64,000 bases of DNA, from positions 115,841-179,840 of the IMG/VR virus record IMGVR_UViG_3300041809_000571; one strand, 5' to 3'. This document shows positions 21,266-64,000 of the stretch, piece after piece. Position 1 is the first letter of the stretch. Each line of letters starts with the position of its first letter. Source of the DNA: a virus. A model generated the notes under the pieces. The model did no database searches, was not told where the DNA came from, and saw nothing but the letters and a program-made list of their open reading frames with translations. A program made the translations under genes and the position numbers.

Positions 21266-21266
21266 C

Positions 21267-22866: not shown

Positions 22867-22867
22867 T

Positions 22868-38153: not shown

Positions 38154-38158
38154 GTTTT

Positions 38159-38171
38159 CAGTATTATAGGT
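38159..38171 (+). promoter_or_regulatory. CAGTATTATA-N3-ATG element
   Basis: Variant copy preceding the unannotated micro-ORF 38172. Confidence 0.4.
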
Positions 38172-38776: not shown

Positions 38777-38964
38777 AAATCGTTCTGGAAATGAACCACG
38801 ACGAAGCCCTATGCCTGCTGGAGAAACTCAGTGAGGCCGTTGTTACTGATGACACTCCCGAGCAGATTCCCACGACGCTCTTCAAGCGTCTCCGGGAAGC
38901 TATCAAACACCCGCAACCGGACAAAGAACCGGACATCGAAGCACCGGGAAGATTGGGGGATTGA
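38773..38964 (+). CDS. Hypothetical small acidic protein
   Basis: GTG start after GGGAGG; GTGTGA overlap. Confidence 0.35.
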   Translation: MKIVLEMNHDEALCLLEKLSEAVVTDDTPEQIPTTLFKRLREAIKHPQPDKEPDIEAPGRLGD

Positions 38965-39195
38965 ATGCTAAAGCCCTGTCAGCGCTGCAAAAGCCAGCGT
39001 ATGCTATTAGTTAACGGCAAGTGTTCCGACCTTTGCCAGCTTATCTATCAGGACAAAGAAGCGGACGGATACGTGCCCTACAACCTGAATGTTGGTGGGG
39101 GCGACTACATTGAATTCACCGTCTGCTTGGAATGCGGGCAGGTACAGGGAACATTCCCCGTGCCCGAGGAAACCGTGGCAGAGGTATTTCCATGA
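38965..39195 (+). CDS. Zn-ribbon protein
   Basis: CQRC ... C ... CLECG. Confidence 0.4.
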   Translation: MLKPCQRCKSQRMLLVNGKCSDLCQLIYQDKEADGYVPYNLNVGGGDYIEFTVCLECGQVQGTFPVPEETVAEVFP

Positions 39196-39389
39196 GCATG
39201 ATTGGTGACATCGCCACGGAGGCGACCGTCGAAGAGTTTGTGAAGGAAATTGACCGGCTCATCATCAAGCACCGGGATAGCCCGGAGGCGATGAAAGCCC
39301 TCAAGGAAGCCGGGCGGTTCGCCCTCACGCAATTTGATTACACCACCCCGGCGTGGGCACATACGTTCGCCGCCAAGTTCCGGGAGTAA
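39192..39389 (+). CDS. Hypothetical small protein
   Basis: ATGA-coupled start at 39192. Confidence 0.4.
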   Translation: MSMIGDIATEATVEEFVKEIDRLIIKHRDSPEAMKALKEAGRFALTQFDYTTPAWAHTFAAKFRE

Positions 39390-39413
39390 GAAAAACTACC
39401 CACTTTTTCTTAC
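39386..39413. terminator. Bidirectional hairpin between convergent genes
   Basis: GTAAGAAAAA ctacccac TTTTTCTTAC perfect 10-bp inverted repeat spanning both stop codons. Confidence 0.45.
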
Positions 39414-42400
39414 TCTTCTCGGGGCGGACCCGAGAACATCTCATCTTCAAACCACTCAATATGCGGCAGTTCCCGTGCGGAGGCTTTCTTGACTTCCGGC
39501 AGGGGTTCGACCTTGAGCACGAAGCCTGTCTCCGTCCCCTTGCCTCGGCCCTTACCTTTTGCTCTCAACCCCACGACAAACGGCGGCTCCCCTTCCAGCT
39601 TGTCAAGGAACCGCAGGTCATGCAGGTCCCCATCAATGACCGGGCGACCGTAGTACTGCGCCGGGAGCGGCTGCTTGGGCTTAAGGTCGAAGACCACGGC
39701 GACGGATACCCCGTGCTTTAATGCTTCCTGTACTTCCTTCTCATTTGTCTCCGACCGGCTGAACACAATGTCGTAGTTCTCCCGGATTTTCTCCCATGGC
39801 TTCGGGACCTTGGTGTAGTCGTAGAACTGCACCATGGGGTATTCCTTCGCCATCATGACCCCGAGGTTCGGCAAGTCGGAAGTACCGTTTATACGGATGG
39901 CGGGAAGGAGGTCCATCTTCTTCGCCTTACGGACAATTTTCTCAATGCTCTTGCGAAGCTCCTTGAGGAATGTTGGCCGGTCAGTGAAGTAGAGCTTGGT
40001 CTTGTAGATGCGTGAACCCTGAATCTTGGGAGAGTTCACCCACTCGCCTGCGGTGTTGAGGCAGTGGTGACGGCATTCCGGCGTGCTGAATGGACAGACG
40101 TTCCCATACCCGGATTTGTCGGCGGGCATCAGGTGCATGACCCCGGTCAGATATCCCTTGGGGATACCCTTCATCATCTTGCGGTTCTCCGTGTTCACAA
40201 GGGCGGGCTGGTAGGGCTTCTGCGTCTTGAGGTTCTTGGTAGTGACAAACTCCTTGGGCATGGGCCGGTCATCGGCGGCGGTCAGTCGCTTCTTAAGGGG
40301 GAACCACTGGTCCTTGGCCCCGGACCACTTGTCCTTAATAGTATAGCCCTCCAACATCACGGGAGCGCCCTCAATCAGCCGGACTTCATCCTCGCCGCCG
40401 TAGAGGTTCAACTCCATGGTCATATCCCAGTCAATGGAGCTTGCCGGAACCTTCGCTCTCAGGATAAACTCCTCACCGCCCATACCGGCATAAGGTACCG
40501 CCATGTTCTCCCGGAAGGTCCACGCCACACCCAACTTCGTGGTATCGAGGTCTTCAATGCTCCCCAGCTTGACGGCCCGCCAGATAGTAATCGGGAACCT
40601 CCAAGAACTGAACGTCTGCACAAAGCCGTCATAGATGTCCCGGAGTTCCTCTGACTCTGCAAGATTCTCCTCACCTTGTTCCGCTGCCTCATTTTCCAAA
40701 TAGGGGTGGAAACCATCAATCCATTCCTCATAGGGAGGCCACACGAACTTGCCCGCCGTCTTGGAAGCTCCCCGGTAATAGGGTGCTTCCTCAGTATTCT
40801 CCAGTCCCTTGAGGTAACCATGCTGAGACTCGTTGAAGTTGATGATGCGGACCTTGTCCCAGTCGATAAGCTGATTGAGCTTGTGCGCCCCGCCCGCTCC
40901 CAACACCGGTTGATTGAATAGCAGCACTTGGTGGGGGACCTGTGTGGTGCCGTGCTTGTCGTAGATACCGTCATACCCGGCGTCAATGAGTTCTCTCTGC
41001 GTCGGTGCCTTGCTGATAAACCGATGGCTCTCTCCTCCCATGGAGGACACCCACTCGCCTTGCGGGTTTTTCACTGCCAACTTTAGAGGACGGGTGAAGT
41101 GAAGCTCCATGAAAGCTCCCTGCGCCCGGCCTGCCGCCCACGGGCTGGTGCGGTTCATAGACGGGTGGGTATAGACTCCCACTCCCATCTCATTGTAGCC
41201 CTCGGTCTCACCATAGAAGCTCTTCTGAGTCTTTATCTTCTTCGCCCGGTAAGCTGAGGTACCGTGATAGAGCGGACGGCTCCAAGTTGCCTCTTCAACC
41301 TCAACCGGCTCCTTGGCTGACCGCTTCTGCAACCGCTGCTCACGCTCTGCTATCTCCTCGGGCGTCATATGGTAAATGGTGGTGGTGCCCTCACGAGTCC
41401 AGTAGCCGGGAAGGTCTGCTTCTCTCCAAGCGCCGGGGGGAAGACCCTCTTGAGATACCACCTCTTCCTCTTCCGGCTCGTTGATGGGAGTGATGCTATA
41501 GTCATCAGCGAGAAGGATGTCGTCACCATCCGGGTAATTGTGAGGGATAATCCAACCGGGTAATCCCGACTCCGGGAGGCTGTCCAATATCTCCTCAGTG
41601 CCATACTGTGACCGCAGCCCGAACATATCTTCCAATCTCTCCAAGTCATCCCCGCCGTCTATTCGAGGTAGACGAATGGGCTTGGTGACTTGGTACTCCA
41701 AGATGCGGAAATTCCCCTCTTCTCCCCCATGCCAGCCTTGGAAGTTTTCCGCCACGGAACGGGAGGTGCTAAACCATGCCGGGGTTTGGATGTCCATTGC
41801 TGGAAAATCCTCCGCCGTGCCGTGATAGAGGATAGTGCCCTTGGGGATGAGGTAAGTCTTGCGCCAGCGCCTCCACCATTCACCGGAACTCCACTTGTGG
41901 ACGGAGCCGGGCGGCATCCAGTCAACCACCTCATAGGTTTCGGAATGGGGATACTTTCGCTTGATAGCCTCTATCACCTCGGGAGGAGTAAACTTAAGGT
42001 CAAATCTCCTTCCTCCCCACGGACCGAAAACCACCGTGTCGTCTAGGCTCTCTTCGGGATTCTTGGAGTAATCGTAATCTTCGGCGTCCGTCCAGACGTA
42101 GATTTGTTCCTTGTCGTTGTCGATATAAAAATTTCCCCTCGGGATGCGGTCGAACTCCGGTCCCCGGTCAGGGATTCCCATGCGAGCAAACCAATCGGTA
42201 TGCGCCATTCCTCTTGGGCTAAGGAGAGCTTTGCCTTCCCATATCGCCCACGGGTATCCTACCAATCCGGCTATCTTCATAGCTGCCCGTAGACTGGGGT
42301 GCATATCCCGCTCAATGTCAGTGCTGCCTTTGCAGTCCAAGCAGAAATAAGTGTCGGTGGTCGGTGAATGCATCGCCCATGCTGTCTGGTCCGAACCGCA

Positions 42401-44110
42401 ACGAGGACAGAAGCCGCCCCACTCCGAGGCGGTCTTAGCAGTCTTAGCGGTCATCAAGGGTTGGATTACATCCTTACCCCAGTACCGATAATCAGCATCC
42501 ACAGTGGGAGACACAAGGGCAAAATAGGTCACCGCTCCTTGGTCCACGACGTAGGGGATGTATCCACTGGCGGCTGCTCCTAACCGTGCCATGCGTGCAT
42601 ACAGGGCGGCTCTCCCAGCGCCCTCCGCCGAAAAGTACATCGCCGGGGGGCGGAGATTGCGCAGGGCACTCATGACCAGACCGCCTACCTTGGTGAACAC
42701 CTCGGCGACGTGTCCGGTATTGGTAGTCCCGTAGGCACCCAGCAGGTTGGCATCGGCATTCAGGAAGAGGAAACTGACCGCCCGGTTACCAAAGGTAGGA
42801 AGCCCCGGCTCGGCATCCGTCCAACTCTGCATGACAGCGGTGTAGGGGATGTATCCCTTCTGTGTCTCGGGGGCCTTGATGTAAAATTGGGAAATCCAGC
42901 GGTCCCCGCTGGCATACCGCCAGTCTTCCCAATCGGCTGGCTCCGGGGCCTTGCGGTCAGCGGTCTTCTGGAAAAGCCCGGCGTTCTGGTCGATGAACTG
43001 CACGGCAAGAGCCGTATCATTTAGGTCTTGCGTGCTCATCGCTTGCAGTTGTTCGGGAGTAACCTCGTACACCGAGATTTTGGTTTCGGGTTTGCCGGGA
43101 TACTGCCGTCGTGCCGTTTCTGCTTTAACAAGAGCGTTGAAATCGTGAGGTCCCTTGGAGTCAATGGCAAGCTCTCCCTTGCGACAGAAAGCATGAACCA
43201 CTGTCTTCTGTTCCCCGGATTCCTCCACGATTGCCCATATCGGCCAGCCAAACTTCTGATGCAAGGCATTGGCAAAGACAGTACAGTAGCCTCCTTGCCA
43301 GCGTTCGCCCGCTGCCGTCTTAGGTTGAGCGAAAGTTACGTCACTGTCATAGACACTATAGTCCATGCCGCTCCTGCTCCACTTCACCGTCAGGAACCGT
43401 TCATTGCCGCCGTGATATTTCTGACGAACATCCTCGCCCGCATCATTAGTCTCCATGATTTCCCGGACGCCCAAGAGAGTACCCTTCTCTCCTGTGGACT
43501 TACGGATGACCGTGCAACCGATTTCACCCGGCTTGGCAAGAGCGTTATCTACCCGGTAAATATGAGAGGGGTCAAAGACTACTATCTGCGGTCCTATATC
43601 TAAAGTTTTCCATCCCCCTCCCTTATGATAGACGGCGTCGAACTTAGACTTAAGAGTCTCAGTCATCTGCTGAGTGGCTTTTACTCTACTCCATGTGGAG
43701 GTATCGGGGTCATAACCATTTTTTAACCACCACTTCATCATTGTATGAGGGGTATTGAAATTTATAGATTCAAGCCGTGGGACATCTAAGTAATAGACCT
43801 TAAGCCCTTTCAGGCTATTACCATTAAACTTTTTTCCAACTGACTGGGAAGGCGTCATATATACACCAAAACCTAAAAAGTGAATTGGTGGAGGAAGTCC
43901 CATAGCATATTCCCGATTTTCCTCAAACCCATGAGAAACCGGACCCTGACCAGCCTCGCCCTCGAATACCTTAAACCCCTCTTGGTCAATTAACTCTCGT
44001 GCTTCCGATGTAGTTCCATGGTATACTGGACCAAACAAATGCCGGTCTAACGCCTCTTGGAGAGAGATTGTCTGTGCTTTCGGAAATGCAGTTTTAGATA
44101 CATTCGTCAT
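39410..44110 (-). CDS. Giant polyvalent protein (1566 aa) with three H-Y-E type ADP-ribosyltransferase-like modules and a Cys-cluster C-terminal domain
   Basis: ART signatures VYHGTTS, ILYHGTAEDF ... AWFSTS ... FRILEYQV (PARP/diphtheria-toxin-like His, Tyr/Ser and Glu positions) and PLYHGTSAY; C-terminal CPFSTPECRHHC cluster; recurrent PDRGPEFDRIPRG module. Confidence 0.8.
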   Translation of the reverse strand: MTNVSKTAFPKAQTISLQEALDRHLFGPVYHGTTSEARELIDQEGFKVFEGEAGQGPVSHGFEENREYAMGLPPPIHFLGFGVYMTPSQSVGKKFNGNSLKGLKVYYLDVPRLESINFNTPHTMMKWWLKNGYDPDTSTWSRVKATQQMTETLKSKFDAVYHKGGGWKTLDIGPQIVVFDPSHIYRVDNALAKPGEIGCTVIRKSTGEKGTLLGVREIMETNDAGEDVRQKYHGGNERFLTVKWSRSGMDYSVYDSDVTFAQPKTAAGERWQGGYCTVFANALHQKFGWPIWAIVEESGEQKTVVHAFCRKGELAIDSKGPHDFNALVKAETARRQYPGKPETKISVYEVTPEQLQAMSTQDLNDTALAVQFIDQNAGLFQKTADRKAPEPADWEDWRYASGDRWISQFYIKAPETQKGYIPYTAVMQSWTDAEPGLPTFGNRAVSFLFLNADANLLGAYGTTNTGHVAEVFTKVGGLVMSALRNLRPPAMYFSAEGAGRAALYARMARLGAAASGYIPYVVDQGAVTYFALVSPTVDADYRYWGKDVIQPLMTAKTAKTASEWGGFCPRCGSDQTAWAMHSPTTDTYFCLDCKGSTDIERDMHPSLRAAMKIAGLVGYPWAIWEGKALLSPRGMAHTDWFARMGIPDRGPEFDRIPRGNFYIDNDKEQIYVWTDAEDYDYSKNPEESLDDTVVFGPWGGRRFDLKFTPPEVIEAIKRKYPHSETYEVVDWMPPGSVHKWSSGEWWRRWRKTYLIPKGTILYHGTAEDFPAMDIQTPAWFSTSRSVAENFQGWHGGEEGNFRILEYQVTKPIRLPRIDGGDDLERLEDMFGLRSQYGTEEILDSLPESGLPGWIIPHNYPDGDDILLADDYSITPINEPEEEEVVSQEGLPPGAWREADLPGYWTREGTTTIYHMTPEEIAEREQRLQKRSAKEPVEVEEATWSRPLYHGTSAYRAKKIKTQKSFYGETEGYNEMGVGVYTHPSMNRTSPWAAGRAQGAFMELHFTRPLKLAVKNPQGEWVSSMGGESHRFISKAPTQRELIDAGYDGIYDKHGTTQVPHQVLLFNQPVLGAGGAHKLNQLIDWDKVRIINFNESQHGYLKGLENTEEAPYYRGASKTAGKFVWPPYEEWIDGFHPYLENEAAEQGEENLAESEELRDIYDGFVQTFSSWRFPITIWRAVKLGSIEDLDTTKLGVAWTFRENMAVPYAGMGGEEFILRAKVPASSIDWDMTMELNLYGGEDEVRLIEGAPVMLEGYTIKDKWSGAKDQWFPLKKRLTAADDRPMPKEFVTTKNLKTQKPYQPALVNTENRKMMKGIPKGYLTGVMHLMPADKSGYGNVCPFSTPECRHHCLNTAGEWVNSPKIQGSRIYKTKLYFTDRPTFLKELRKSIEKIVRKAKKMDLLPAIRINGTSDLPNLGVMMAKEYPMVQFYDYTKVPKPWEKIRENYDIVFSRSETNEKEVQEALKHGVSVAVVFDLKPKQPLPAQYYGRPVIDGDLHDLRFLDKLEGEPPFVVGLRAKGKGRGKGTETGFVLKVEPLPEVKKASARELPHIEWFEDEMFSGPPREE

Positions 44111-44973
44111 ACCGTTTCCTTAATAGCACAACGATACCCACTCCAATCGTTATACCGCCCATGAGCTACATACAAAAGCATATGATAGTTAACCCCGGAG
44201 TTCCTACACCACGCCTTAAGATTTCTTATCTCAAGGGTTTCTCCTGCGGGAGTGGAAACAGCATATACCCGTTTGGTTGGGTGACCATACCTCCTGAAGT
44301 TTTCTAGCCTCTTTTGATTAGCTATCCTAATGCTTTCGGGACTTAATTGTTTTGGCTTACCCATCAATGCGCTAGAGATTAAATTTCTATGATTCTCTGA
44401 AAAAACACCCCGCTTTCTTCCCGCATTCTTTTTGGAAATCAAAGCCTTTGTCTCTTTAGAGTGTTGTTTTCCGTAAAAGGAGTTGTTAACCCCGGTGGTA
44501 TCTCTATGGATTTCATGCATAAGTTTTTTGGTTTCCTCGGAGTGGTTTTTACCGAAAAACGGATTGTTCTTTCCACTGCGAGCTTCCCCCGTTATCTTGC
44601 TCCGTTGCTCTGTATCCCATACATACCCAGAAATACCCTCTCCCCCTTCGGTAACATTTGTCAGAGGCCCCTCTCCAAGATTAAAACGCCCAATTAGACA
44701 AATGATTTTCTTCTCAAGAGTAAATGCTCTTTCCTCAGACAAAGTATCCTTTATTATGACTACGGTTGGAGATTTTCCGATGTCTAATAACTTTTGTATT
44801 ATCCTATCTTTATGCGGATTGTGGTGCTTTCCTATGTAACAGGAATGACGCCACGCCCGCCTCCCTTTTCCCTTTCCCACGTAAAATGGCTGATAAGAAA
44901 GTAGTATTTCCCCATACACATACTTTCCCGGCTTCCTTGGGTCGCACAATATGTAAACATAAAATCCACTCAT
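44107..44973 (-). CDS. GIY-YIG homing endonuclease with NUMOD3 repeats
   Basis: GFYVYIL ... FYVGKGKG ... R ... H ... E ... N GIY-YIG core; three NUMOD3-like repeats (GKNNPFFGKNHSEETKK, GVNNSFYGKQHSKETK, GVFSENHRNLIS). Confidence 0.8.
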   Translation of the reverse strand: MSGFYVYILCDPRKPGKYVYGEILLSYQPFYVGKGKGRRAWRHSCYIGKHHNPHKDRIIQKLLDIGKSPTVVIIKDTLSEERAFTLEKKIICLIGRFNLGEGPLTNVTEGGEGISGYVWDTEQRSKITGEARSGKNNPFFGKNHSEETKKLMHEIHRDTTGVNNSFYGKQHSKETKALISKKNAGRKRGVFSENHRNLISSALMGKPKQLSPESIRIANQKRLENFRRYGHPTKRVYAVSTPAGETLEIRNLKAWCRNSGVNYHMLLYVAHGRYNDWSGYRCAIKETV

Positions 44974-45001
44974 ACTTATGAACCCAATAGTCGGTATATA
45001 C

Positions 45002-46651
45002 TTAACTACCAGAATTTACAAGCAGCCACTCCGCTAACTCAGGGGGAATCTTATGATTTGTTATTGAAGCTGTTTTCTGGCTGGCGGTTACTCCCGTATC
45101 TCCCTTGGCAACCTTGATGTATTTCGGAGGGACAGCGCCGTACAGGATGACAGTGTTGGGGGACATCCCCTGTTCATAGTCGTAATGGTAGTCGTCATCT
45201 CCCAGAGCGTGGGCGAGATACTCCCGTGCCTCTCCCTCGGCGATGTCGGATTCCCTTCCAGCAAAAGGTAAGCTGCTGGGAGGAAGCTCCCGTTTCATAG
45301 CCTCAGTGTCGATTTCCAACACAGTGTCGTAATAGTAGCTGGACTCATCCCAATCGGTGCTGGTGAAGACCGCCGCTCCCGTGCTTCGGTTGCTCAATCC
45401 CCGAGTCTCGTTCATGGAGAGCAACCCCTGTTGCAGGATGGTCTCCACCTTGTTCTCATCCGTCCCATGATACAAGGTGGAAGGGTAGGCCCAAAATTCC
45501 TTGTTAAATTTTTCTTCCGAATCAGGCAGGAACTTCTCGGCATTGTAATCGAAGAGGAGGTCTCGAACGTCAGACCACATGGTGAAGGTTCCGTCATCAT
45601 CCACGGCGACCACCGCACCGCCCACCTCATAAAGCCTGCCACCATTGTAGGCGAGCGCCATCTCCGCTCCATGCTGAGCGAGGATGGCTTCCACTTTTGG
45701 CAAGTCACCCTCCACCTCATAGAGGGCGTTTTCCAAAGTGTTGTATCCTGCGTATCCCCGCTTGCTGACAAAGAATGCTTTCTTGAGGGCGGCGGTGAAC
45801 TCTGCCTTCTGTGGGTCGTATTGTTGTGCAAATGCTGACTTAATTTGGTTAGGCTCGAAGGCTATCCAAGCGACTCCACCTTCCACCAGATTCTTGTAAC
45901 GGATACCGTCGTGCCCTGCGGCTTGCAGCTTTGTTCTTGCTTGCATGGCGAGGTCATAGGCGGCATCTTTGAGCATCTCCTCTTCCCCCTCTTCGGGGTG
46001 CATACGCTCGAACAGCCACTCATTCTGTCCCTGCCGGAAAGTTGTATCAGTATCGTACTCTTGATACCACTCATCGGCTTTTTGTGTGGAACTTTCCTCA
46101 TCCTCGGGGCTTATGCCATCGGCTATCATGGCGGACTGCAAAAGCTCCTCTTCATACCCACCTATCTTCCCCTGATAGATGAACTGGAGCATGTTCTTTT
46201 CGCTGCCAAAGTCCTTGGGGTTGATTATGCGGAGATACACGGGAATGACACGGGGTTTTTCTTCGTCGCCCTCATACCGGGTCTGGGTCCACCCCTTGCC
46301 CATAGCGAACATATCAGCGACCTTGGGGTCTACAGCGAAGTGCGCTCCCATGAAAGCGCCGGGGTCCCAGCCGCTACCGGAGGACAGCGGCTCGCCCGTC
46401 TCCGTGGTCACAACACCGTCTGTGCTGAACTCCTCGAAGTCCACCGATGACCGGGTGCCGTGGTAGACTCGGAGCGGTCGGCCCTGCTGGTCCACCACCT
46501 TGGACCCGGCAAACCAACGCCGGAAATTAGGAGACTCCACACCGGCTCCCCTTTTAGGTGAGGCAGTTTTTCTGGGCCGAGTAATCTGGTGCGCTACCCG
46601 AGCCAACTCCTCATCCGTTACGGAGTTAGTGTCCTTTTCGAGTAAGTCCAT
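45002..46651 (-). CDS. Polyvalent-family protein (549 aa) with two ART-like modules
   Basis: RVYHGTRSS and TLYHGTDENK ... AAVFTSTDW signatures. Confidence 0.7.
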   Translation of the reverse strand: MDLLEKDTNSVTDEELARVAHQITRPRKTASPKRGAGVESPNFRRWFAGSKVVDQQGRPLRVYHGTRSSVDFEEFSTDGVVTTETGEPLSSGSGWDPGAFMGAHFAVDPKVADMFAMGKGWTQTRYEGDEEKPRVIPVYLRIINPKDFGSEKNMLQFIYQGKIGGYEEELLQSAMIADGISPEDEESSTQKADEWYQEYDTDTTFRQGQNEWLFERMHPEEGEEEMLKDAAYDLAMQARTKLQAAGHDGIRYKNLVEGGVAWIAFEPNQIKSAFAQQYDPQKAEFTAALKKAFFVSKRGYAGYNTLENALYEVEGDLPKVEAILAQHGAEMALAYNGGRLYEVGGAVVAVDDDGTFTMWSDVRDLLFDYNAEKFLPDSEEKFNKEFWAYPSTLYHGTDENKVETILQQGLLSMNETRGLSNRSTGAAVFTSTDWDESSYYYDTVLEIDTEAMKRELPPSSLPFAGRESDIAEGEAREYLAHALGDDDYHYDYEQGMSPNTVILYGAVPPKYIKVAKGDTGVTASQKTASITNHKIPPELAEWLLVNSGS

Positions 46652-55709: not shown

Positions 55710-55724
55710 CTATAGAAGAATCAG

Positions 55725-58700
55725 TTAGAGGGTTTCTAGCCAATCTGCGGCATCCTGCGTGGAAGTGAAGCTTTTAGACCAGTTTGGATGGTCATGCGGA
55801 CCCATCTCCAAGGTCACTTCTCCCTGAAATGGCATCATCAGAAGAGCCTCGGTGATGAGTCGGCGGCTCTTGGTGACATTTCGTGCCTGAATGGAAAACT
55901 GACCGGCATCCCGGTCAACCCGGAGGTGCCCGTTCTCCATGGCAAGGTTCTCGGCATACCCGAGGTAATCCTCCCCTCCCTGCTCCTCTACCTCCCAATC
56001 ATCCATACCGCAAAGGTTCTCCGCCATCGCCCACTCCCCGTGAAGTTCGTAAGGGTGAGTCATGGGAAGGGGTCGCCCGTCCCGAGATATCCAGCCGCCG
56101 TTTTGAGAGAGCTTGGACCAATCGCCGGAACGTTCAGGCCACGGGCCGGATGGTTGCAGAAGAGGGTTTACCCTGCGCCGGGCAGCTTTCACCCGGAAGC
56201 CCCCCTTTATCTTGCCGCCGTAAACCTGCTCTTCTTCATTGACGTGAGGGGTCTTGTACAAGGACGAGTCGTAACCTCTCGGATTCATCTCCAAGAGCAT
56301 GTTTTCCATAATCCCGGCACCCTCATCATTCGCCGAATGCACAAACCACCGCTGGGGAATGAGGTTGTTAGCCTTGAGCCACTTGATACAATCCACCCCG
56401 GTCTTCTCCTGATATCGTTCGTAAGGTGGTGTACCTGACTTGTACCGTTCTTCCTCCTCGGCGTAAGTGGGGTAATGCTCCAGAGCCAAATCGTGGTCAA
56501 AGGAGATGGCCTCGGGCATGGGATGCGTTGTCATGTACTGGACAAACTCCTCATAGTTCCTGACCCAATCGACATCGGAAGCAGTGGGTCGGCGCATGTC
56601 GTCAACATAAAGGAGCCTAGCGGGTTGCTCCTCCGCCTTCTTCCTCACTTTCTTAGTTGGGTTGACATAGATTTTTAGCAGATTGGGGAAGGTATAGGGG
56701 GCCATGCACTGCCACGCTTCCTCGGGGGTAAGAGGGTAGACTTCCATGAAATCCAGACCCATCTGGAGGCGTTTCTTTGCCCGGTGATTACCGTCAATGA
56801 GGATGTAGTGCTTCTGTGGCTCGGGATGATTTTTATCTGGCTTATAAACGAGTGGAGCCACGATACCGGGCTTCTCGATATCAACCTCGTTCATGTGTTC
56901 CTTGTTCAGGCCCACGTTCATGAGGTTGATTCTGCCCTCTTCCTCCGCTTTGTCATCCTCCACCGTGCCGACAAAAGCCTCAAGGAATGCCTTGGGGGCC
57001 TTCTGTGCGGGCCGGGGATTGGCGGCGATAAACTCTTCTGCTTTGTCAACAGCAAACTGCAATCCCCAGTAGGAGAAGCGCTCATCCTGCCAAGCCTTCT
57101 TAACAGTGGGCTGTGGACCCGTCAGCGGCTTGTACATGATGTACTCGCTGTCTACATAAGGCTCGAACCCTAACTTACCATAGAAGTCATAGAGGGTTTC
57201 TATCTCTGTTACTTCATCTAAGGGAGAGGCGTGCAGGTAGCTGTCTTGTGCTCCTGCCCGGCGTGCCGCCTGTAAAACCGTATCCACGAGAGCGGTGCCC
57301 AGTCCTGTGCGCCGGGCGGCAGGGTTGACTTCCACAGCGAGTAGGAGGAAGGTACGGTAGTTCTCGTTGCCTTCGACCTTATCCGATTCGTCGTAGTCGG
57401 TAGAGAATCCATTTTCATCCAACCAATCTTCCAGTCCCTCAAGGTTGGTGATTTCCCCACGGGCATAGCCAAGGCGGTGTTTGGCTTCAAGCTGGGTTCC
57501 CCTCTTGATAACCCGGATACCACTTCCCGCCGATACCTTCTCTATGGGGGCTTCGGTAACGGACGCCTCACGGGAGATGAATGCAACCTTATCCCGGTCG
57601 GCAACCATCCAGTCCTCTTCTCCGGGAAGCTTGTAGCCTTGCAGTCTACGCCAGATGTTGGGAACCCGCTTCTTGTTGTACCTATCCGGGAGATAGCTCT
57701 TGATTCCTTTCCACCTCGGACTCATGAATTGCATCAAGGCGAAGTACATCGCCTTGCCCAGTCCGTATCCCCGGTGCCGTGGTTTCACTTCCACCAGACC
57801 TATTCCGAGGTAATCGTTCAGGGGTCCACTGTCGCTCTGCCGTTTGGTAGATAGTTTGCCAACACATTTGTTGTCCTCCGTCCATGCCGTGATGTATTCG
57901 GCGTCTTCGGGGTCATCCACGACGATGCGATAGCTTCCTACGTGGGCTACTACGTTCTTGTCTTCCCACTGTTCTACGGAGGCAATCTTCCTTGGCTCCG
58001 GTAGCACTGTGATATTTTTAGGAGGAACAAAGCGAGTTGAATAGGAAGGAACGCCGGTTTCCCCTACCCCCAAGGGGTCCTTCGCCAAGCGTAATCCCTC
58101 AGTCTTAATGCGGAGGGTAACTAGCTCGTCATCCTTACCCCGGATGAACTCAGCGAGGAGATTTTTCCAGTAATCCACCCCCTCAATCGCCGTCAAGAAT
58201 ACCAACCCACGACTCTCCTCGAAGGGGAAGTTTGGCTCCTTTTGCGGAACCAACCCCTCTTGAAGTATCTTGGGGACCCGGCTCTTAAAAGTCACATGAT
58301 AGAGAATCTCGGGAATCTCAGCAGCGGTCTTGGGAACAACCGCCGAGCCGGTACCTTTCCGTTGATACTCCGGGTCGTTCAGGTTGGTGATTACCACTCG
58401 CCAGTCATCCTCTTCTCCGGGGTGGAATTGGTCGCAGGTGATGTCAATAATCTTATCCTGCGTCTCTACCCACCAGTGTAGTCCATGCCTGCCCACCTGC
58501 AAGTGCTCACCCTTTTCCGGCCCCTCTCCATAATACCCACCCGCCCGGTGAGCGTCGGGGAATCCGTGCTCTCGCAGGAACTTCGCCAACAGGTCCGCCA
58601 GACAGAGGCACTGCTCACGGAAACAGGACTTGTCCTCTAACCACTCATACCAATCCTCTTGCTCCTCCCGGAATTGCCACACGAGTTTGGCGAGCGTATC

Positions 58701-60035
58701 CTCCTCGGCGGCTCTCCTTCGCCGGATAACCTTAATCTGCTTATTGATGGCCGCTTTGATATTTTCCGGGAGAGGATAGTTGCAGCCAATTGACCCATCA
58801 TCCTCCACCCAGAAGATGGCGATATCTCCGCTCGTCTTTCCATGGGAATCTCCCCATGGGGTGTCGCCCCAACCAATGGCGGGTCCACCGCCCTGCGGAC
58901 CTTCGGGGGCACGGGGGTCGGTTTTGGTCCAATCGTATTCACTCTGCTCCCTCTCCAGAATCGGCTGGCTGAATATGTGGCTGTGGTGCCATCCACCCGC
59001 CTTACACTCCTGATAGTTGTGGGCTTCTTCAATGTGCCCATCCAGCAAAGACACCGCTCCCAAGGAGAACGGCTTGCCATTCCAACGAGCGTTGTCTCTT
59101 GTGAGAGCGGCGGTCTTGGGTCTTGGGATAAGCTCAATGTGCTTTACCCCGTTCTCCTCCACCACCCGGTAATCCTTAGCCAGCCGTGCCCACACATTCT
59201 TGGCATCCCGAGACTGAGTGAAACCTTCCCTGAATATTTTGTAGCCTTTCTTTCTTGCCTCTTCAATAGCCATGCGGTAGAGAGTCAAGCCGATGCCGTG
59301 GTATTTAAGGTCGGTGCTGACCCATACGTTCATCACCCGAACGGTTCCCTTCTCCTGTGTATACTCGTAGTGCTCCTCGTTGTTCTTCGTGTACGAGTTT
59401 ATGGCGGCGACGGTGATACCCCCGACTTGGTATCCGTCTAGGTAGGCGTTGACCGCAAAGGTGGGATAGGGTCCCGGTTCCTTGGTTATCTTATAAGTTA
59501 CACCTTCGGGGGTGGGGAACTTAGAGGCAAGCTTCCCCTGTTTTGGGGGGTCGGGACGGCAGAATCCCTTTTGGCTAGTCAATAACTCGTCCTCCATGGC
59601 GGTATACTCAAACCCGTCGCTGAACTTAATCTTATAGGCTCTTGGTGACCCTTCTTCAAGACGTTGGACGGGGGTCATACCACTTAACTCCTTCAGCCAT
59701 CCATCTGCCTCTGCCTTTCCTAGCACCGTGACCTTCTGATGTGAGTGATACCACAGCTTGGCATCGGCGGACTCGGGACTCTCCCAACACATATACTCGA
59801 ACCACGCCTGCTCACCGGGCTTCCATTCATTCTTCCAGTAAAGGCGGCTAGTAGCAGGGGACTTGGAGGCGAACTTCCCCTCGTCCTTATCGTCTTGACC
59901 GTTTCCAGTAGTCAGGACCAGACAACATGCACCTTTTTCATCCCTTACAATGCGACATTTGTCGTCTGAGTAAAGGATGGTTTCGTCTTCATCCTTGCTG
60001 TTGACGGGAACTTTGTTCACTGTGTTTTCAGGCAT
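55725..60035 (-). CDS. Giant polyvalent protein (1436 aa): 3 GNAT acetyltransferase modules, a degenerate ART-like module, and a ParB-like nuclease domain
   Basis: GNAT motif A (YHGIGLTLYRMAIEEARKKG, HRGYGLGKAMYFAL, RRTGLGTALVDTVLQAARRAG); ILYHVTFKSRVPKILQEGLVP; ParB-type YILIDGNHRAKKRL near the N-terminus. Confidence 0.8.
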   Translation of the reverse strand: MPENTVNKVPVNSKDEDETILYSDDKCRIVRDEKGACCLVLTTGNGQDDKDEGKFASKSPATSRLYWKNEWKPGEQAWFEYMCWESPESADAKLWYHSHQKVTVLGKAEADGWLKELSGMTPVQRLEEGSPRAYKIKFSDGFEYTAMEDELLTSQKGFCRPDPPKQGKLASKFPTPEGVTYKITKEPGPYPTFAVNAYLDGYQVGGITVAAINSYTKNNEEHYEYTQEKGTVRVMNVWVSTDLKYHGIGLTLYRMAIEEARKKGYKIFREGFTQSRDAKNVWARLAKDYRVVEENGVKHIELIPRPKTAALTRDNARWNGKPFSLGAVSLLDGHIEEAHNYQECKAGGWHHSHIFSQPILEREQSEYDWTKTDPRAPEGPQGGGPAIGWGDTPWGDSHGKTSGDIAIFWVEDDGSIGCNYPLPENIKAAINKQIKVIRRRRAAEEDTLAKLVWQFREEQEDWYEWLEDKSCFREQCLCLADLLAKFLREHGFPDAHRAGGYYGEGPEKGEHLQVGRHGLHWWVETQDKIIDITCDQFHPGEEDDWRVVITNLNDPEYQRKGTGSAVVPKTAAEIPEILYHVTFKSRVPKILQEGLVPQKEPNFPFEESRGLVFLTAIEGVDYWKNLLAEFIRGKDDELVTLRIKTEGLRLAKDPLGVGETGVPSYSTRFVPPKNITVLPEPRKIASVEQWEDKNVVAHVGSYRIVVDDPEDAEYITAWTEDNKCVGKLSTKRQSDSGPLNDYLGIGLVEVKPRHRGYGLGKAMYFALMQFMSPRWKGIKSYLPDRYNKKRVPNIWRRLQGYKLPGEEDWMVADRDKVAFISREASVTEAPIEKVSAGSGIRVIKRGTQLEAKHRLGYARGEITNLEGLEDWLDENGFSTDYDESDKVEGNENYRTFLLLAVEVNPAARRTGLGTALVDTVLQAARRAGAQDSYLHASPLDEVTEIETLYDFYGKLGFEPYVDSEYIMYKPLTGPQPTVKKAWQDERFSYWGLQFAVDKAEEFIAANPRPAQKAPKAFLEAFVGTVEDDKAEEEGRINLMNVGLNKEHMNEVDIEKPGIVAPLVYKPDKNHPEPQKHYILIDGNHRAKKRLQMGLDFMEVYPLTPEEAWQCMAPYTFPNLLKIYVNPTKKVRKKAEEQPARLLYVDDMRRPTASDVDWVRNYEEFVQYMTTHPMPEAISFDHDLALEHYPTYAEEEERYKSGTPPYERYQEKTGVDCIKWLKANNLIPQRWFVHSANDEGAGIMENMLLEMNPRGYDSSLYKTPHVNEEEQVYGGKIKGGFRVKAARRRVNPLLQPSGPWPERSGDWSKLSQNGGWISRDGRPLPMTHPYELHGEWAMAENLCGMDDWEVEEQGGEDYLGYAENLAMENGHLRVDRDAGQFSIQARNVTKSRRLITEALLMMPFQGEVTLEMGPHDHPNWSKSFTSTQDAADWLETL

Positions 60036-60699
60036 AAGCCTTGGTTTCCTTCTCCCACATTTTCAGATATTCAACCGCCCTTTGCACAATGCCGATATCA
60101 TCCTTTAGCAAGCCTATTCCACGATTGCAGCCTCCGCAGAGCATCCCACGAGGAGAATCCGTTATGTGGTTGTGGTCAAGGTCCGTTGCCGGTGCCTGTC
60201 GGCATATGGCACAAAGCCCTGCTTGGACAGTAAGCCGTTCTTGGATGTAGGACTCGTCAACACCGTATATATAGCGGCGATGTGCCGCTTGGACCTTTCT
60301 TGGGTTGTTTTTTCTCCATTCGGCATGCTGCTTTCGCCTCTTTTCCAGACTACGATGCTCTAGCTGCTGGCTGTAGCAAGCCTTACATAACCCAAATGCT
60401 TCATGGGGACGGTCTGGGTGGCACCCCGCCTTTCTCCCCTTGAAGTTCCCCTTGTGCATAGAATCAACGATAAACTGCTTGTTTTTCTTTCGGCACTCCT
60501 CCTTGAAACAGGTCGTAAGGTCCTTTGCATAGTATCTGGGAACCTTGAATTCCTCATTGCAAAACCGACAAATCCTCCTTATCGAATGCTTCTCTCTTGT
60601 TGCCTCGCCATAGCATTTCCGGCTACAAAAATTTTTCTCTTTGATGCTCGCAGGGCACCTGTCAAACTCTTTTTTGCACCATCCACATTCCACCAACAT
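60028..60699 (-). CDS. HNH homing endonuclease (endonuclease VII-type HNH) with N-terminal Cys-rich zinc-finger repeats
   Basis: GLCAICRQAPATDLDHNHITDSPRGMLCGGCNRGIG. Confidence 0.75.
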   Translation of the reverse strand: MLVECGWCKKEFDRCPASIKEKNFCSRKCYGEATREKHSIRRICRFCNEEFKVPRYYAKDLTTCFKEECRKKNKQFIVDSMHKGNFKGRKAGCHPDRPHEAFGLCKACYSQQLEHRSLEKRRKQHAEWRKNNPRKVQAAHRRYIYGVDESYIQERLTVQAGLCAICRQAPATDLDHNHITDSPRGMLCGGCNRGIGLLKDDIGIVQRAVEYLKMWEKETKAYA

Positions 60700-60729
60700 A
60701 AAGCACCTCCTATATGAAGGAGGTAAAAG

Positions 60730-63700
60730 TTAAGGTTTCAAGGGGTTATGCCCCATGTCAGAATTGGAGTCCCATATTTCAACCGTACCGGGGTCTTTCT
60801 CGTTTGTTGCTTCTAACGGAACCCCGATGTGCTCCAATGTCCAGACCCGGACTAGCAACTTAATCTTGTCTTTTAGCTTCTCATCCGCCAGCCGGGCGGT
60901 GAAGATTTTCACCTCCACACCATCCTCGATTGCCGCCTTGATTTTCTCCACCATCGCCGGTACCGGCTCGCCAATCTTGAGCGGGTCGAACTCCTCCGTC
61001 TCCTTGGCGAGAGTGCCATCAAGGTCCACGCCAATCCACTCCCCCCACTCCTTGGCGGCAGTGATATCTGTCTTCCGAGGGTTAAATTCTCCCGTATTGC
61101 TGAGAGCCGATTTAATTTGGTTGGCATTGAACACCCCGAAGTTTAGGGCGTTAAGCTCCACCAAAGCGACTCCATCATACCCCGCCTTCTTAATGAAAAA
61201 GAGGAAACTGGGAAGCTCCAAGGCTACCCATGAGCCTTTGGCAACCTGACTGACAAAAGCATCGGCATCATATTTGACTTTCTGCCGGTCGGTAAGCTCC
61301 TCCTCCATGACTCCGTAGTAATCGGCACATGCTCGGCTCTCATCAAACTGGTCCATCTCCCCGGAGTTGAAGTATTCCTCGGCAAGATACTGGGCATCGT
61401 TCTGACGGTAGTCAAACAGTTTCTTTATCTTAAGATAACAGGGCATGATGTTTGCCCCAATGGTCGCCTGTCCCCCATCCATGACAGGGGTGCCTTTCTC
61501 TTCTTCCCACTTCATAACCCCGGAATACATGGAAGCGAAGTCCGGGTTGGTGGTAAAGAATATCAAGCCGCCTCGGAATCCTTTGTCCTGTCGGAACCGC
61601 TGGAAGTTTGACGAAGTGCCGTGGTAAACCTTGAGGGGCTTACCGTCCTTGCCTACAATCTCAGAGCCATCAAACCACCGCCTGAATCCCGGCTCCTGCG
61701 TGATGTCAAAGGGTCGCCGGGGCGGGAGGTCTAGCTTAAGCTGTTCTGCCGCCGTCATCCTCGGCGACCTTGGGTTGAAGGTCCCCACATTCTTAATGGC
61801 GGATTTTGCTTGCCGGGGATTCCAGATGATGTAGTGGTGGGTCCCCGGATAAATTCCCATGTTGGGGAACTGCTTATCCGGCTCCATCTGGATGATACCG
61901 TCGAATCCCATTGTGCGGTAGACTTGGGAGATGAAATCCCCGGCGTTGATGTAAACATCTTCGGGAAGATTATCAGAGTTACGGAAAGCTTGCTCAAACT
62001 CATAGGCGGTGAAATCACTGTAGAGTTCACCGTTCGCCGTCACTTTACTCCAAACATCCTGTCCATCCACACCCTGTTTTTCAGCGACTTTCAAGACGGC
62101 ATTGTAAAGCCGCATCCCCGAGCCGGATTCCCGGCCTGTCGCCTCATTGTAGTTTATGTAAAACTCAGTCCCACCTTTTCGGGTGACGACGACCGGTCTC
62201 TCGATACGCAGGTAAGTGGCGTAGACTATCCCCTCTTCATCGGGACCCACAATTTCCTTTATGGCACGTTCGTTGGCGTCGGCTCGCAGGTCTTGATACT
62301 CAGTGGTATTATACCCCGGAAAATCCTCCCCCATCTCGCTGTAAAGGTCGTTGATGAGTTCATCCGTCCGGCGCTCAATACGATTGGTGATGTCGGGTCC
62401 GGTCGGTGTGGCGTAGTTCCTTGTTACATCGCCTTCACTGTCAGTGAAATATATTCCCTGCCCATAATAATTCTCAACATCAGAACGGGAGGGATTGAAC
62501 ACCTCAAACTGATGGGTGCTGCCGTGGTAGACAGGTTTGGGACTACCATCCGGTTCCTTCACCACAGAGTTGCGGAACCACGCCTTAAACGCCGGGGTAT
62601 TCGTCATCTCCTGCTTGGGGTGGAGATAAGTTAGGTCATTAACGGAGACTCCCGCCGTTACAGACTTCTGCACCGCAACCTGACCCACAAGCTGGACGGC
62701 TCTGCCGGTGTAGGTTCGCCACTCGCCCAATGCGCTCTCCTGCGTCCCCATGGCTCCGGGAATGGGCTTGAACTCCAGCACCGCTACTTGCTCCTCATCT
62801 GTTTGTGCCAAGGCGGCGGTATCGGACATGAAGAACAGAGGGTCCATCCTGCCGCCTGCCTGCTCCCGGAAGAAAGCCCATGTTTTGAAAAGCTGGAAAG
62901 CGTCCTCTCGCTTTTCCTCGGGAGTGGCCGGTCTCTCAAAGTATGAATAGTATTGAGCGTCCCGGCCTTGCCAACCGTGCGCTCCCTTGGCGGGAACATA
63001 TCCAAGGGTCTTAGCTTCCTCCGCTGTCATCCCCATGGCACTGCTGCGCTCGGGGATATCCATGGAGTGCTTGGTAGTTACCCCCCGAACAACGGCAGAA
63101 AGAACAGAGGGAAGACCGTCCTCATCCACCACCATGTTGGACTGGGTGCCGTAATAGCGCTTGATGTCGCTTAGCCACTCCCGTTGTGCCCCCTCACCCT
63201 TACGAGCGGTTTCCAGCATCTCCTGCGGAGTGAACCTGCCGCTGGCTACACGGATAGCGATAAGGATGGCATGATAGATATCCTCGGCAATCCGCAAATC
63301 GGTGGTGAAACTAATGGATTTCTCTGTACCCCCACCTAGCCCATGACCATAACCCTGATTAAGCTCCTCTCGGGTCTTTATGCCCCCATAAAAAACCGCA
63401 TCCGCCGCTGTAGTTACGTGGTAGAGCCGGGCGGGAAGGGGCTTGAATGCCTTGCTACAACTGCCGCCGATACAGCCCGGTGAAAGGTCCCTCTGGTCAG
63501 CCTCCTCGGGAGAGATTTTACCGAGGGAAAGGGCGGTAAGCAAGGAGGTCTGCCATTCCTTCCTACGCTGCCAACGCTTATGACCCTCCTCCTGTGTCTC
63601 TTGCTCGTTCCACACCCCGGAGTAATCACGCTCATTTTGCAGATAAGCGTCATCGGCGGCGGCTGTAACTGAGAGAGATTCTCTCTGTGGTAGTGGAACT

Positions 63701-64000
63701 TCTTCCATGGATTCCTTAACCTTGCCTGTTTCGATAGCCTTGCGCTTGTCCAACCGCCATGCTCTGGTGGGCCAGACTACTCCCTGATGAGCAGCGTGCG
63801 CCCCGTGTTCAAGGAGCCACTGAGTAAGCCTTGGAGTAACATACTTCTGGAGTTTCTTGCCTATGACGGTAAGTTCCCCGAAGTCGTTATAGTAATCCAG
63901 TTTCTTCCGCTGTGTGGGAGTAAGTTGGTGAATAAGGCCCCATACATCGTGAATTATCTCCTCGGGTACTCCCGGCTGATTGATGGGTTGGTCGTCAAAC
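60730..64000 (-). CDS. Polyvalent protein with 3 ART-like modules and a C-terminal HAD-like domain; N-terminus lies beyond the window end
   Basis: RLYHVTTAAD, PVYHGSTHQFEVFNP and KVYHGTSSNFQRF; C-terminal IGVDLDGTLA HAD motif I; the reading frame continues without a stop from the TTG at 63753 up to position 64000. Confidence 0.75.
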   Translation of the reverse strand, partial: FDDQPINQPGVPEEIIHDVWGLIHQLTPTQRKKLDYYNDFGELTVIGKKLQKYVTPRLTQWLLEHGAHAAHQGVVWPTRAWRLDKRKAIETGKVKESMEEVPLPQRESLSVTAAADDAYLQNERDYSGVWNEQETQEEGHKRWQRRKEWQTSLLTALSLGKISPEEADQRDLSPGCIGGSCSKAFKPLPARLYHVTTAADAVFYGGIKTREELNQGYGHGLGGGTEKSISFTTDLRIAEDIYHAILIAIRVASGRFTPQEMLETARKGEGAQREWLSDIKRYYGTQSNMVVDEDGLPSVLSAVVRGVTTKHSMDIPERSSAMGMTAEEAKTLGYVPAKGAHGWQGRDAQYYSYFERPATPEEKREDAFQLFKTWAFFREQAGGRMDPLFFMSDTAALAQTDEEQVAVLEFKPIPGAMGTQESALGEWRTYTGRAVQLVGQVAVQKSVTAGVSVNDLTYLHPKQEMTNTPAFKAWFRNSVVKEPDGSPKPVYHGSTHQFEVFNPSRSDVENYYGQGIYFTDSEGDVTRNYATPTGPDITNRIERRTDELINDLYSEMGEDFPGYNTTEYQDLRADANERAIKEIVGPDEEGIVYATYLRIERPVVVTRKGGTEFYINYNEATGRESGSGMRLYNAVLKVAEKQGVDGQDVWSKVTANGELYSDFTAYEFEQAFRNSDNLPEDVYINAGDFISQVYRTMGFDGIIQMEPDKQFPNMGIYPGTHHYIIWNPRQAKSAIKNVGTFNPRSPRMTAAEQLKLDLPPRRPFDITQEPGFRRWFDGSEIVGKDGKPLKVYHGTSSNFQRFRQDKGFRGGLIFFTTNPDFASMYSGVMKWEEEKGTPVMDGGQATIGANIMPCYLKIKKLFDYRQNDAQYLAEEYFNSGEMDQFDESRACADYYGVMEEELTDRQKVKYDADAFVSQVAKGSWVALELPSFLFFIKKAGYDGVALVELNALNFGVFNANQIKSALSNTGEFNPRKTDITAAKEWGEWIGVDLDGTLAKETEEFDPLKIGEPVPAMVEKIKAAIEDGVEVKIFTARLADEKLKDKIKLLVRVWTLEHIGVPLEATNEKDPGTVEIWDSNSDMGHNPLKP

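Follow-up and report, generated by a model that had tools for sequence, protein, structure and literature searches.

Giant polyvalent proteins rich in ADP-ribosyltransferase modules, encoded by a jumbo-phage locus interrupted by homing endonuclease genes

In a 64,000-nucleotide (nt) stretch of the IMG/VR virus record IMGVR_UViG_3300041809_000571 (positions 115,841 to 179,840 of that record; henceforth the window), the minus strand between 39410 and 64000 is occupied by seven closely packed open reading frames (ORFs), as delineated by ORF calling. These code for giant multi-domain proteins and for two free-standing homing endonucleases. As judged from their sequences, the giant proteins belong to the polyvalent proteins that Iyer et al. 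2017 described, a class in which the ADP-ribosyltransferase (ART) is the commonest protein-modifying domain, present in one or many copies, with GNATs as typical neighbors and with Pol-beta nucleotidyltransferases (NTases), zincin peptidases and ParB in the same domain network (PMC5512222). An initial annotation, made from the nucleotide sequence, had likewise described giant polyvalent phage proteins packed with ART modules and interleaved with GNAT and NTase domains, and this description stands. The sizes it gave for four of the giant ORFs (1566, 549, 3027 and 1436 amino acids (aa)) are exact, while the fifth ORF is open at the window end and codes for at least 1089 aa. However, it had counted five consecutive genes, whereas gene B lies between C and A, and gene F between G and E. 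The genes are as follows:

39410-44110, minus strand: gene A, 1566 aa, giant, the last of the polyvalent genes; three ART-PolyVal-like modules, a zinc ribbon (A568-593), one copy of domain Y and a C-terminal GP88 domain
44107-44973, minus strand: gene B, 288 aa, free-standing GIY-YIG and NUMOD3 homing endonuclease at the C/A junction
45002-46651, minus strand: gene C, 549 aa, giant; an ART-PolyVal module (aa 38-293, nt 45773-46540) and a Tpt1/PARP-like ART module (aa 378-530, nt 45062-45520)
46626-55709, minus strand: gene D, 3027 aa, the largest polyvalent gene; ART modules D205, D1888 and D2176, the motif-only candidate D906, a Pol-beta NTase, a HEIGH motif, three copies of domain X and two of domain Y
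55725-60035, minus strand: gene E, 1436 aa, giant; three GNAT stretches, the Tpt1-like ART module E579, a DGNHR motif and a cREC_REC domain
60028-60699, minus strand: gene F, 223 aa, free-standing EndoVII/HNH homing endonuclease with CxxC pairs at the G/E junction
60730-64000, minus strand: gene G, open at the window end, at least 1089 aa in the window; two ART-PolyVal modules, the motif-only candidate G193 and a small C-terminal HAD-like domain

The locus had been taken to end at 64000. Metagenome contigs of 316,945 and 364,142 bp carry the exact sequence, and on an identical contig (L001; 100% identity across 13,973 overlapping bases) the locus continues to about 70579, so that it spans ~31 kb, of which ~6.6 kb lie beyond the window end. 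This contig gives gene G a full length of 1261 aa, the window holding residues 173-1261; module positions in G are given below in window numbering, to which 172 is added for the full-length protein (G792 thus being G964). Upstream of G it carries another giant gene, H (2028 aa), with a GNAT at the N-terminus and one VYHVT module. Together, the six giant genes (H, G, E, D, C and A) code for ~9,870 aa. The phage provenance of the locus is apparent from RIIA, RIIB and long tail fibers encoded in the same window, along with a tRNA nucleotidyltransferase (35433-36797), and from the contig sizes of 317-364 kb.

The recurring motif singled out in the initial annotation, of the type [LV]YHG[TS], is real. 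In the form [LVIW]YHG[TS] it occurs 10 times (A29, A761, A947, C62, C393, D204, D1887, D2175, G490 and G791) in the 7,667 aa encoded by the window, as against a mean of 0.0105 copies and a maximum of 1 in composition-preserving shuffles (n=2000), and it is absent from the six-frame translation of window positions 1-39400. It had been ascribed to all five giant genes; this holds for A, C, D and G, whereas gene E has no strict copy. Inclusion of the Val-for-Gly variants E579 (LYHVT), G193 (LYHVT) and D906 (AYHVS) raises the number to about 13 candidates in the window, and two further copies (G23 and H1719) lie outside it. Based on sequence and profile comparisons, including hhalign between module family profiles, which was used to link modules of A, C, D and E, we conclude that YHG[TS]-type motifs mark ART modules. 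The early figure of about 12 such modules was a fair count: of those in the window, four are certain and five have good support, two are probable and two are known from the motif only. Apart from the two modules of gene C, they are:

49602-50126, minus strand: D1888 (aa 1862-2036), ART-PolyVal with VYHGS, AFWFA and GGHDGIII
61741-62613, minus strand: G491 (aa 463-753), ART-PolyVal, 47.7 bits to PF18760
61021-61716, minus strand: G792 (aa 762-993), ART-PolyVal, 76.2 bits to PF18760
43511-44077, minus strand: A30 (aa 12-200), divergent ART-PolyVal-like module with H31 (VYHGT), GVYMT and FDAV...VVFDPS
41471-41878, minus strand: A762 (aa 745-880), ART-PolyVal-like module with ILYHGT, AWFSTS and YPDGDDILL
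40781-41323, minus strand: A948 (aa 930-1110), probable ART module with LYHGTS, GVGVYTH and AGYDGI...VLLFNQP
57936-58352, minus strand: E579 (aa 562-700), Tpt1-like ART module
48075-49232, minus strand: D2176 unit (aa 2160-2545, ~385 aa), probable PARP/Tpt1-like module with IWYHGSS...ILTEGLNP, SYGGVYVT and ILAV[IV]EVR
54735-55142, minus strand: D205 (aa 190-325; conserved unit aa 160-335, 54705-55232), compact ART-fold module
52680-53042, minus strand: D906 (aa 890-1010), AYHVS...SILKNGL...AVYLF, motif only, unverified
62956-63483, minus strand: G193, LYHVT, motif only, unverified

Four of these modules, C63, D1888, G491 and G792, score above the gathering cut-off (31.2 bits) of the Pfam model for ART-PolyVal, PF18760, and are certain members. 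C63 obtains 67.3 bits in the whole protein (gene C, E 3e-18) and 45.5 bits as a cut-out segment, D1888 obtains 53.0 bits (E 8.3e-14, model positions 4-136 of 140), and gene G matches the model in three stretches with an E-value of 2e-34. Jackhmmer and hmmsearch runs seeded with the strongest ART-PolyVal module recruit just these four. Family-level comparisons extend the set and support A30 and A762 as ART-PolyVal-like modules. The copy of A30 in the window has no Pfam match and its family profile no significant match in PDB, but 10 of its 12 homologues (44-68% identical) match PF18760 at E-values that range from sub-threshold to threshold (best E 1.7e-6), and hhalign links it at 88.7% to the family of G964. 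A762 reaches 22.4 bits (E 2.3e-4), below the cut-off, and aligns with the same family (window G792) at 94.9% over 98 columns. A948 is probably also an ART module: its match to PF18760 is 13.7 bits (E 0.11, model positions 9-115) and its hhalign value only 48%, with one close homologue known, yet it possesses the full set of H-Y-D motifs.

The published active site of ART-PolyVal, a member of the Tox-ART-HYD2 clade, comprises a His in strand 1, a Tyr in strand 2 and an Asp in strand 5 (PMC5512222). In a motif comparison all seven ART-PolyVal-like modules retain YHG[TS], an aromatic-x-[TSA] element and [YHF]-D-[GA]-[IV], and most of them are closed by a hydrophobic run resembling vvF-p-nQIK. We conclude from these alignments that they carry the H-Y-D configuration and not the H-Y-E configuration of PARP and the diphtheria toxin, with its conserved strand-5 Glu. 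A PARP-like catalytic Glu had been proposed in the ILEYQV segment of A762; this residue is not conserved (homologues read VLAYRA, VLVYKV, ILRFQV and ILKFQV, with A, V, R or K in its place) and corresponds in position to the strand that follows motif 2. The lack of the Glu in most copies, which the initial annotation had named as grounds for giving up the ART assignment, is indeed what is found. However, it does not count against an ART fold. Both homologue families, those of D205 and A30, have the His of the YH motif and further polar residues in every sequence; the Tyr is likewise constant throughout the D205 family, and it is changed in just one A30 homologue.

A second group consists of short modules. 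A profile of eight of these retrieves solely structures of the ART superfamily from PDB, with Tpt1 first (E 3e-5), followed by PARP10/15/1 and DarT, and the pattern LYHGT...IL.EGL.P is common to the modules and Tpt1/KptA. The PDB matches are confined to chain residues ~87-120, and Pfam PTS_2-RNA matches, all sub-threshold, to model positions 92-158 of 177. Thus, only the NAD-binding C-lobe is matched, whereas Tpt1/KptA has in addition an N-terminal RNA-binding lobe; the short modules are therefore not Tpt1 orthologues. C394 and E579 are supported as ART modules by such profile links. C394 matches PARP (E 1e-3) and PTS_2-RNA (E 3e-4), both below cut-off, and aligns with the D205 family at 88.7% and with E579 at 84%; E579 matches PTS_2-RNA at aa 568-598 (E 0.04) and aligns with H1719 at 100%.

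D2176 is probably a PARP/Tpt1-like module, given its match to Pfam PARP (E 1e-3, below cut-off) and its PDB profile matches, which are to Tpt1 only (E 0.12). It is the sole module with a candidate conserved Glu, located in the strand ILAV[IV]EVR and kept in all five aligned sequences that cover this strand. Two homologues of D2160-2545, P0007 (~aa 264-642) and P0015 (~aa 385-779), contain a LAGLIDADG intein of ~365-400 aa (CYDDxTRILT ... ITPDHR ... LEFLGWYLSEGS ... WSGN/S; Pfam LAGLIDADG_3, E 1e-3). It is situated exactly in motif 2 (SYGG/VYVT), and the exteins align seamlessly to the intein-free copy in the window. Inteins typically occupy conserved, functionally critical parts of their host proteins (PMC2814812), and for this reason the insertion suggests that motif 2 matters in the D2176-type module.

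The fold of D205 is settled by a confident structural model, in which structure comparison identifies the split beta-sheet core of the ARTs; this is the part of the proposed AlphaFold check that bore out the prediction. Its family profile has no significant match in PDB, and 30 members scanned against Pfam give just sub-threshold matches to Arr-ms, ART-PolyVal and PARP. Among 1.84 billion representatives, a search with the family profile recovers 322 proteins at E<=1e-3 (190 at E<=1e-30), and all 322 cluster representatives are metagenomic giant proteins, of up to 7,387 aa, or fragments of such. No match to the domain was found in 50,697 GenBank phage records or in PLSDB plasmids. In an alignment of 14 sequences the invariant residues include the YH, L112, D115, Q118 and N121 (PDxDQLxN) and A134, S136, G140 and G142 (SLAESLxxGxGARV), and D117, E135 and R144 are nearly so. 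The unit D160-335 is 35-54% identical to a domain in proteins of 3,000-4,900 aa, whose precomputed Pfam lists include ART-PolyVal and other families of the PF18xxx series; some of them are named by JGI as N12-class adenine DNA methylases with SF2 helicases. By these sequence relationships the D205 domain is common to classical polyvalent proteins, and as an ART family devoid of a Pfam model it goes beyond the literature consulted.

The remaining domains of the giant proteins fall into those with clear family matches and those known from motifs. Gene E has three stretches matching Acetyltransf_1 (E 1.3e-20; aa 189-279, weakly 519-568, and 887-964); both the three GNAT stretches and the Pol-beta NTase of gene D, which the initial annotation had recognized, score above Pfam cut-offs. 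GP88 (PF17338) is found at A1306-1527 (E 4.5e-35). The other features are:

50841-50975, minus strand: Pol-beta NTase core (D, aa 1579-1623), GS...DIDVVIDF; NTP_transf_2 28.1 bits (cut-off 21), E 2.6e-6
56295-56615, minus strand: cREC_REC in E (aa 1141-1247), E 3e-18, above the Pfam cut-off
60733-61047, minus strand: HAD-like domain at the C-terminus of G, DLDGT at G992, plausible HAD motifs
56706-56858, minus strand: DGNHR motif (E1081), motif only
47967-47981, minus strand: HEIGH motif (D2577-2581), a possible zincin, motif only

The DGNHR, HEIGH and DLDGT motifs are thus present, as had been reported. The HAD-like tail of G matches PHROG 1238 (E 1.7e-9 on aa 989-1071) and has no match in Pfam and no sequence match in PDB. 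It reads EIWDSNSD in the window and ELWDDRAK in a homologue where the gene is unsplit (L009, see below), and insertion of the endonuclease gene may have altered this last HAD motif. DGNHR is invariant in the sole three homologues known, and the region, assigned by the initial annotation to a ParB-like domain, has no match in Pfam (scanned to E<=5) or PDB by sequence or profile. Of the profile searches proposed at the outset, those of the ART segments yielded four ART-PolyVal modules above cut-off and that of the ParB-like region none. The HEIGH region retrieves nothing from Pfam beyond DUF3152 (E 0.2) and has no homologues among the retrieved proteins. A radical-SAM-like Cys cluster had also been suggested. 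This is ruled out: a motif search of the locus turned up no instance of C-x(2-4)-C-x(2-4)-C, nor is there a CxxxCxxC or other three-Cys cluster in the giant proteins, the Cys pairs being those of endonuclease F and the zinc ribbon A568-593.

Two repeated domains accompany these modules. Domain X (~120 aa) is present four times in the window, twice directly upstream of YH-motif modules (A762 and D906), and domain Y (~130 aa) has five copies in the locus and nine more in seven retrieved relatives:

41894-42292: domain X, A607-739; further copies D321-441, D778-900 and D1230-1303
40241-40741 (A1124-1290): domain Y, A1124-1287
50130-50612 (D1700-1860): domain Y, D1702-1858
47142-47576 (D2712-2856): domain Y, D2714-2853
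L001 3712-4086: domain Y, H1198-1322
L001 4750-5253: domain Y, H1544-1711

The invariant residues of domain Y, an Arg (PLxVYR), G..W[ST], DW..T and an E-x-E (EExEIRL), recall the pattern of R-S-ExE toxin-type ARTs. Such an identity is speculation, which we set aside: no Pfam match in 14 members, no PDB match, hhalign values of at most 6% to every ART family and no match in GenBank phages give it zero support.

Both endonucleases are readily identified: B matches NUMOD3 (E 1.2e-19), LEM-3 GIY-YIG (E 2.1e-7) and PHROG 314 (homing endonuclease), and F matches Endonuclease_7 (E 1.8e-15) and the PHROG for endonuclease VII. Comparison with a relative on a 218,966-bp contig (L009; stretches 1-5838 and 17103-23366) reveals what their insertion has done. 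There, an ORF of 2087 aa corresponds to C1-541 (88.5% identical) followed directly by A1-1566, which makes up its last three quarters, and another, measuring at least 1945 aa within the part that was read (about 2667 aa as called), to G903-1252 and E50-1436; no endonuclease gene lies between C and A or between G and E. The C/A junction of the relative reads ...VTASQKTAFPVTHTISPQEA..., whereas C in the window ends ...VTASQKTAS with a 20-aa tail and A starts MTNV-SKTAFPKAQTISLQEA..., the linker SKTA being present on both sides of the break. The start codon of A overlaps the stop of B, and the start of E overlaps the end of F. B and F were thus, by sequence comparison, inserted into inter-domain linkers, splitting the formerly continuous C+A and G+E genes, and today's gene count is in part a chance outcome of homing-endonuclease insertion. 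Relative to L009, the segments just downstream of the endonuclease genes have diverged far more than the remainder (A1-267 65% and E50-830 58% identical, the rest 84-94%), which fits reports of nuclease genes delimiting tracts of genetic exchange (PMC10448857).

The process has gone further in a closer lineage (L005-L008), which is 92% identical to the N-terminus of H, with an internal deletion in H, and is entirely devoid of G and F. It has at least four more GIY-YIG, HNH or EndoVII genes in or beside the locus (in L007 at 9011-9862, 13228-13842, 16517-17305 and 18059-18766), three of which cut the equivalents of E and D into ORFs of 237-522 aa. Four additional endonuclease genes are seen just upstream of the locus in the same lineage. 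These arrangements resemble the "genes in pieces" of T4-like phages, such as Aeh1 nrdA split by mobE (PMC3045599, PMC2988022), where likewise a coding region is divided into two neighboring ORFs by a free-standing homing endonuclease gene, the second ORF begins at the endonuclease stop and the sequence beside the endonuclease gene is much more diverged. In contrast to those, the splits here fall in the inter-domain linkers of modular proteins, and the halves need no reassembly. Elsewhere in the window, the ORF at 18701-19684 has an HNH endonuclease domain at its N-terminus (aa 10-70) followed by an RNA-ligase domain (aa 115-325), a further sign of heavy endonuclease traffic in this genome. A scan with ARAGORN found zero tRNA genes in the 64-kb window, despite the jumbo size and the encoded tRNA nucleotidyltransferase.

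With the class of Iyer et al. 2017 (PMC5512222) the locus shares giant chains joining ART-PolyVal, GNAT and Pol-beta NTase domains, multiple ARTs per chain and a phage origin. D combines three to four ARTs with the NTase and repeats, E three GNATs with an ART and cREC, and G three to four ARTs with the HAD-like domain. Unlike classical polyvalent proteins, the modules are spread across six adjacent genes of a jumbo phage, belong to at least three ART families and are in genes interrupted by homing endonuclease genes; hubs of the class such as the zincin MPTase, MuF-C, DdrB-ParB, ArdC and SNF2/methylase domains were not detected in these proteins. Two assertions of novelty fall away in this light: the density of ARTs is not exceptional, since a Pseudomonas prophage protein has 12 ART copies (PMC5512222) and a homologue of the present proteins (P0029, 4583 aa) has 12 xYHG[TS] motifs in one chain, and the combination of ART, GNAT, NTase and peptidase, thought undescribed, is already in Iyer et al. 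2017. Gene D has mosaic similarity to giant proteins (P0013-P0037), and the order and combination of modules differ in every relative. Against GenBank phages, it has no match by megablast and a sole match by tblastn (28%, crAss-like cr10_1). The nearest cultured homologue is gp321 (1362 aa, annotated "MutT/NUDIX hydrolase") of the Tunturiibacter phage Tunturi_5 (PP885688.1 261501-265589, our L004), a 309-kb phage of Acidobacteriota; its ART-PolyVal modules are 34-44% identical to those of G and another region is similar to H122-309. The passages searched in the isolate paper mention neither NUDIX nor gp321 and do not treat the protein as a polyvalent one.

Taken together, we consider it reasonably probable that the locus is an operon-like array of ART-rich, host-modifying polyvalent effectors of an uncultured jumbo phage (~364 kb contig), delivered with the DNA or made available very early; domain identities, the ART fold of D205, the retention of H-Y-D, the split junctions and the shuffled modular build are shown, whereas catalytic activity, targets, timing and packaging are inferred from the parallel with T4 Alt and from the model for polyvalent proteins. 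The six giant genes would string independently folding enzyme modules on flexible linkers, the dominant module being an NAD+-dependent ADP-ribosyltransferase fold in at least three sequence families: a classical ART-PolyVal H-Y-D family (C63, D1888, G491, G792, the divergent A30, A762 and probably A948), short Tpt1/PARP-like NAD-binding lobes (C394, E579 and probably D2176) and the compact family without a Pfam model (D205). The proteins might be made late and then delivered with the DNA, or released very early, whereupon each module would covalently modify a separate host protein, nucleic acid or NAD-derived signal. The ARTs would use NAD+ and the GNATs acetyl-CoA, and the modules of cREC, HAD and NTase type may act on the ends of RNAs or on signals derived from NAD. 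Host machinery would thereby be redirected and defense blunted, as by the head-packaged ART Alt of T4, which serves as the functional model because it modifies host RNA polymerase and other proteins. Alt is, however, a single-domain member of the R-S-E Alt/VIP2 clade, in contrast to the H-Y-D or Tpt1/PARP-like modules of this locus, for which packaging is only proposed. Indirect hints of virion association may be seen in the location of the gene for gp321 of Tunturi_5, which is flanked on one side by the head-tail connector gene and on the other by those for minor tail, terminator and sheath, and in the gene upstream of H in L007, which codes for a domain common to PHROGs of "minor head protein" and DarB-like type.

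Several observations weigh against this interpretation. The literature searched holds no published activity for members of ART-PolyVal. In scans with Pfam and PHROG, the six proteins showed no domain for head targeting, be it MuF, portal-binding or another, and the locus is transcribed in the direction opposite to the adjoining tail-fiber genes. In a promoter and terminator scan of 37500-47000, sites were rarer than in shuffles, so that neither promoter nor timing can be derived from it. As for the modules themselves, D906 has no Pfam match and no hhalign link, G193 is likewise a motif-only candidate, and the AlphaFold2 model of D2150-2700 (D2176 and the HExxH region, from a 7-row alignment) has a mean pLDDT (predicted local distance difference test) of 53.5, with the ART part below 50, so that here the structural check did not succeed as it did for D205. 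Moreover, genes for RNA repair lie nearby, and these, taken with the Tpt1-like, NTase, HAD and cREC modules, would be explained equally well by a role inside the cell, in RNA repair or NAD metabolism.

This last point is the basis of the main rival explanation, a distinct possibility though one we do not favor, under which the proteins are not packaged, being instead intracellular enzyme batteries made post-infection to repair RNA and keep NAD+/ADP-ribose metabolites under control. Tpt1-like lobes would strip 2'-phosphates, cREC and HAD domains process cyclic or terminal phosphates and the NTase restore RNA ends, countering host anticodon nucleases and NAD-depleting defenses. Co-occurrence of cREC_REC (E 3e-18), the small HAD-like domain, the Pol-beta NTase and Tpt1-like modules speaks for it, as do the tRNA nucleotidyltransferase and RNA ligase encoded in the same window, the NUDIX and 2H/LigT domains added in relatives, and surveys of jumbo phages and NAD+ systems that tie cREC, KptA, HAD and 2H domains to RNA repair. 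Yet the Tpt1-like modules lack the RNA-binding N-lobe, which carries most of the catalytic tetrad, most modules are ART-PolyVal H-Y-D or GNAT domains, assigned to protein modification (PMC5512222), and the Tunturi_5 homologue is found among virion genes.

That same location, adjoining tail and ejection genes, could also be read, with the very large sizes and repeated domains, as indicating structural proteins of the internal head or ejection apparatus, built of ART-like folds that are mostly catalytically dead. We regard this as decidedly improbable, given the retention of His, the aromatic residue and Asp by each of the seven ART-PolyVal-like modules, the invariance of the YH His and further polar residues in both homologue families, the intein of relatives in motif 2 of the D2176-type module, a placement typical of functionally critical sites, and the scores of the GNAT, NTase and cREC domains, which are those of normal family members. 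Grouping of ART-PolyVal with the Tox-ART-HYD2 clade of polymorphic toxins (PMC5512222) raises yet another alternative, that of a toxin or exclusion arsenal directed at competing phages or other bacteria rather than a means of host takeover. It appears highly improbable: general scans, with no dedicated search made, turned up no immunity gene, secretion or Rhs/PAAR domain or signal peptide, and the architecture and relatives match the polyvalent proteins of phages and conjugative elements.

A bolder version of the host-modifying effector array, which we put forward tentatively and think rather unlikely, is that of a combinatorial ART arsenal wider than recognized, including the D160-335 family and domain Y, and actively reshuffled by homing endonucleases, which would drive module exchange by co-converting adjacent cassettes. 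If true, domain Y would add five ART modules of a different catalytic class.

The current concept of polyvalent proteins is left unchanged by this locus, whose value is that of a well-dissected example. Polyvalent proteins are thought to be a major class of phage effectors in counter-defense and host takeover, and they are experimentally almost untouched; here a single genome supplies about a dozen compact ART modules of several families. D205, by virtue of its confident model and a family lacking a Pfam model, is a ready candidate for screens of activity and targets. The fused (L009), split (window) and further fragmented (L005-L008) forms of the same genes display the natural cutting and re-dealing of giant modular genes, and the fused and split pairs show which linkers tolerate separation, a useful guide in choosing expression constructs.

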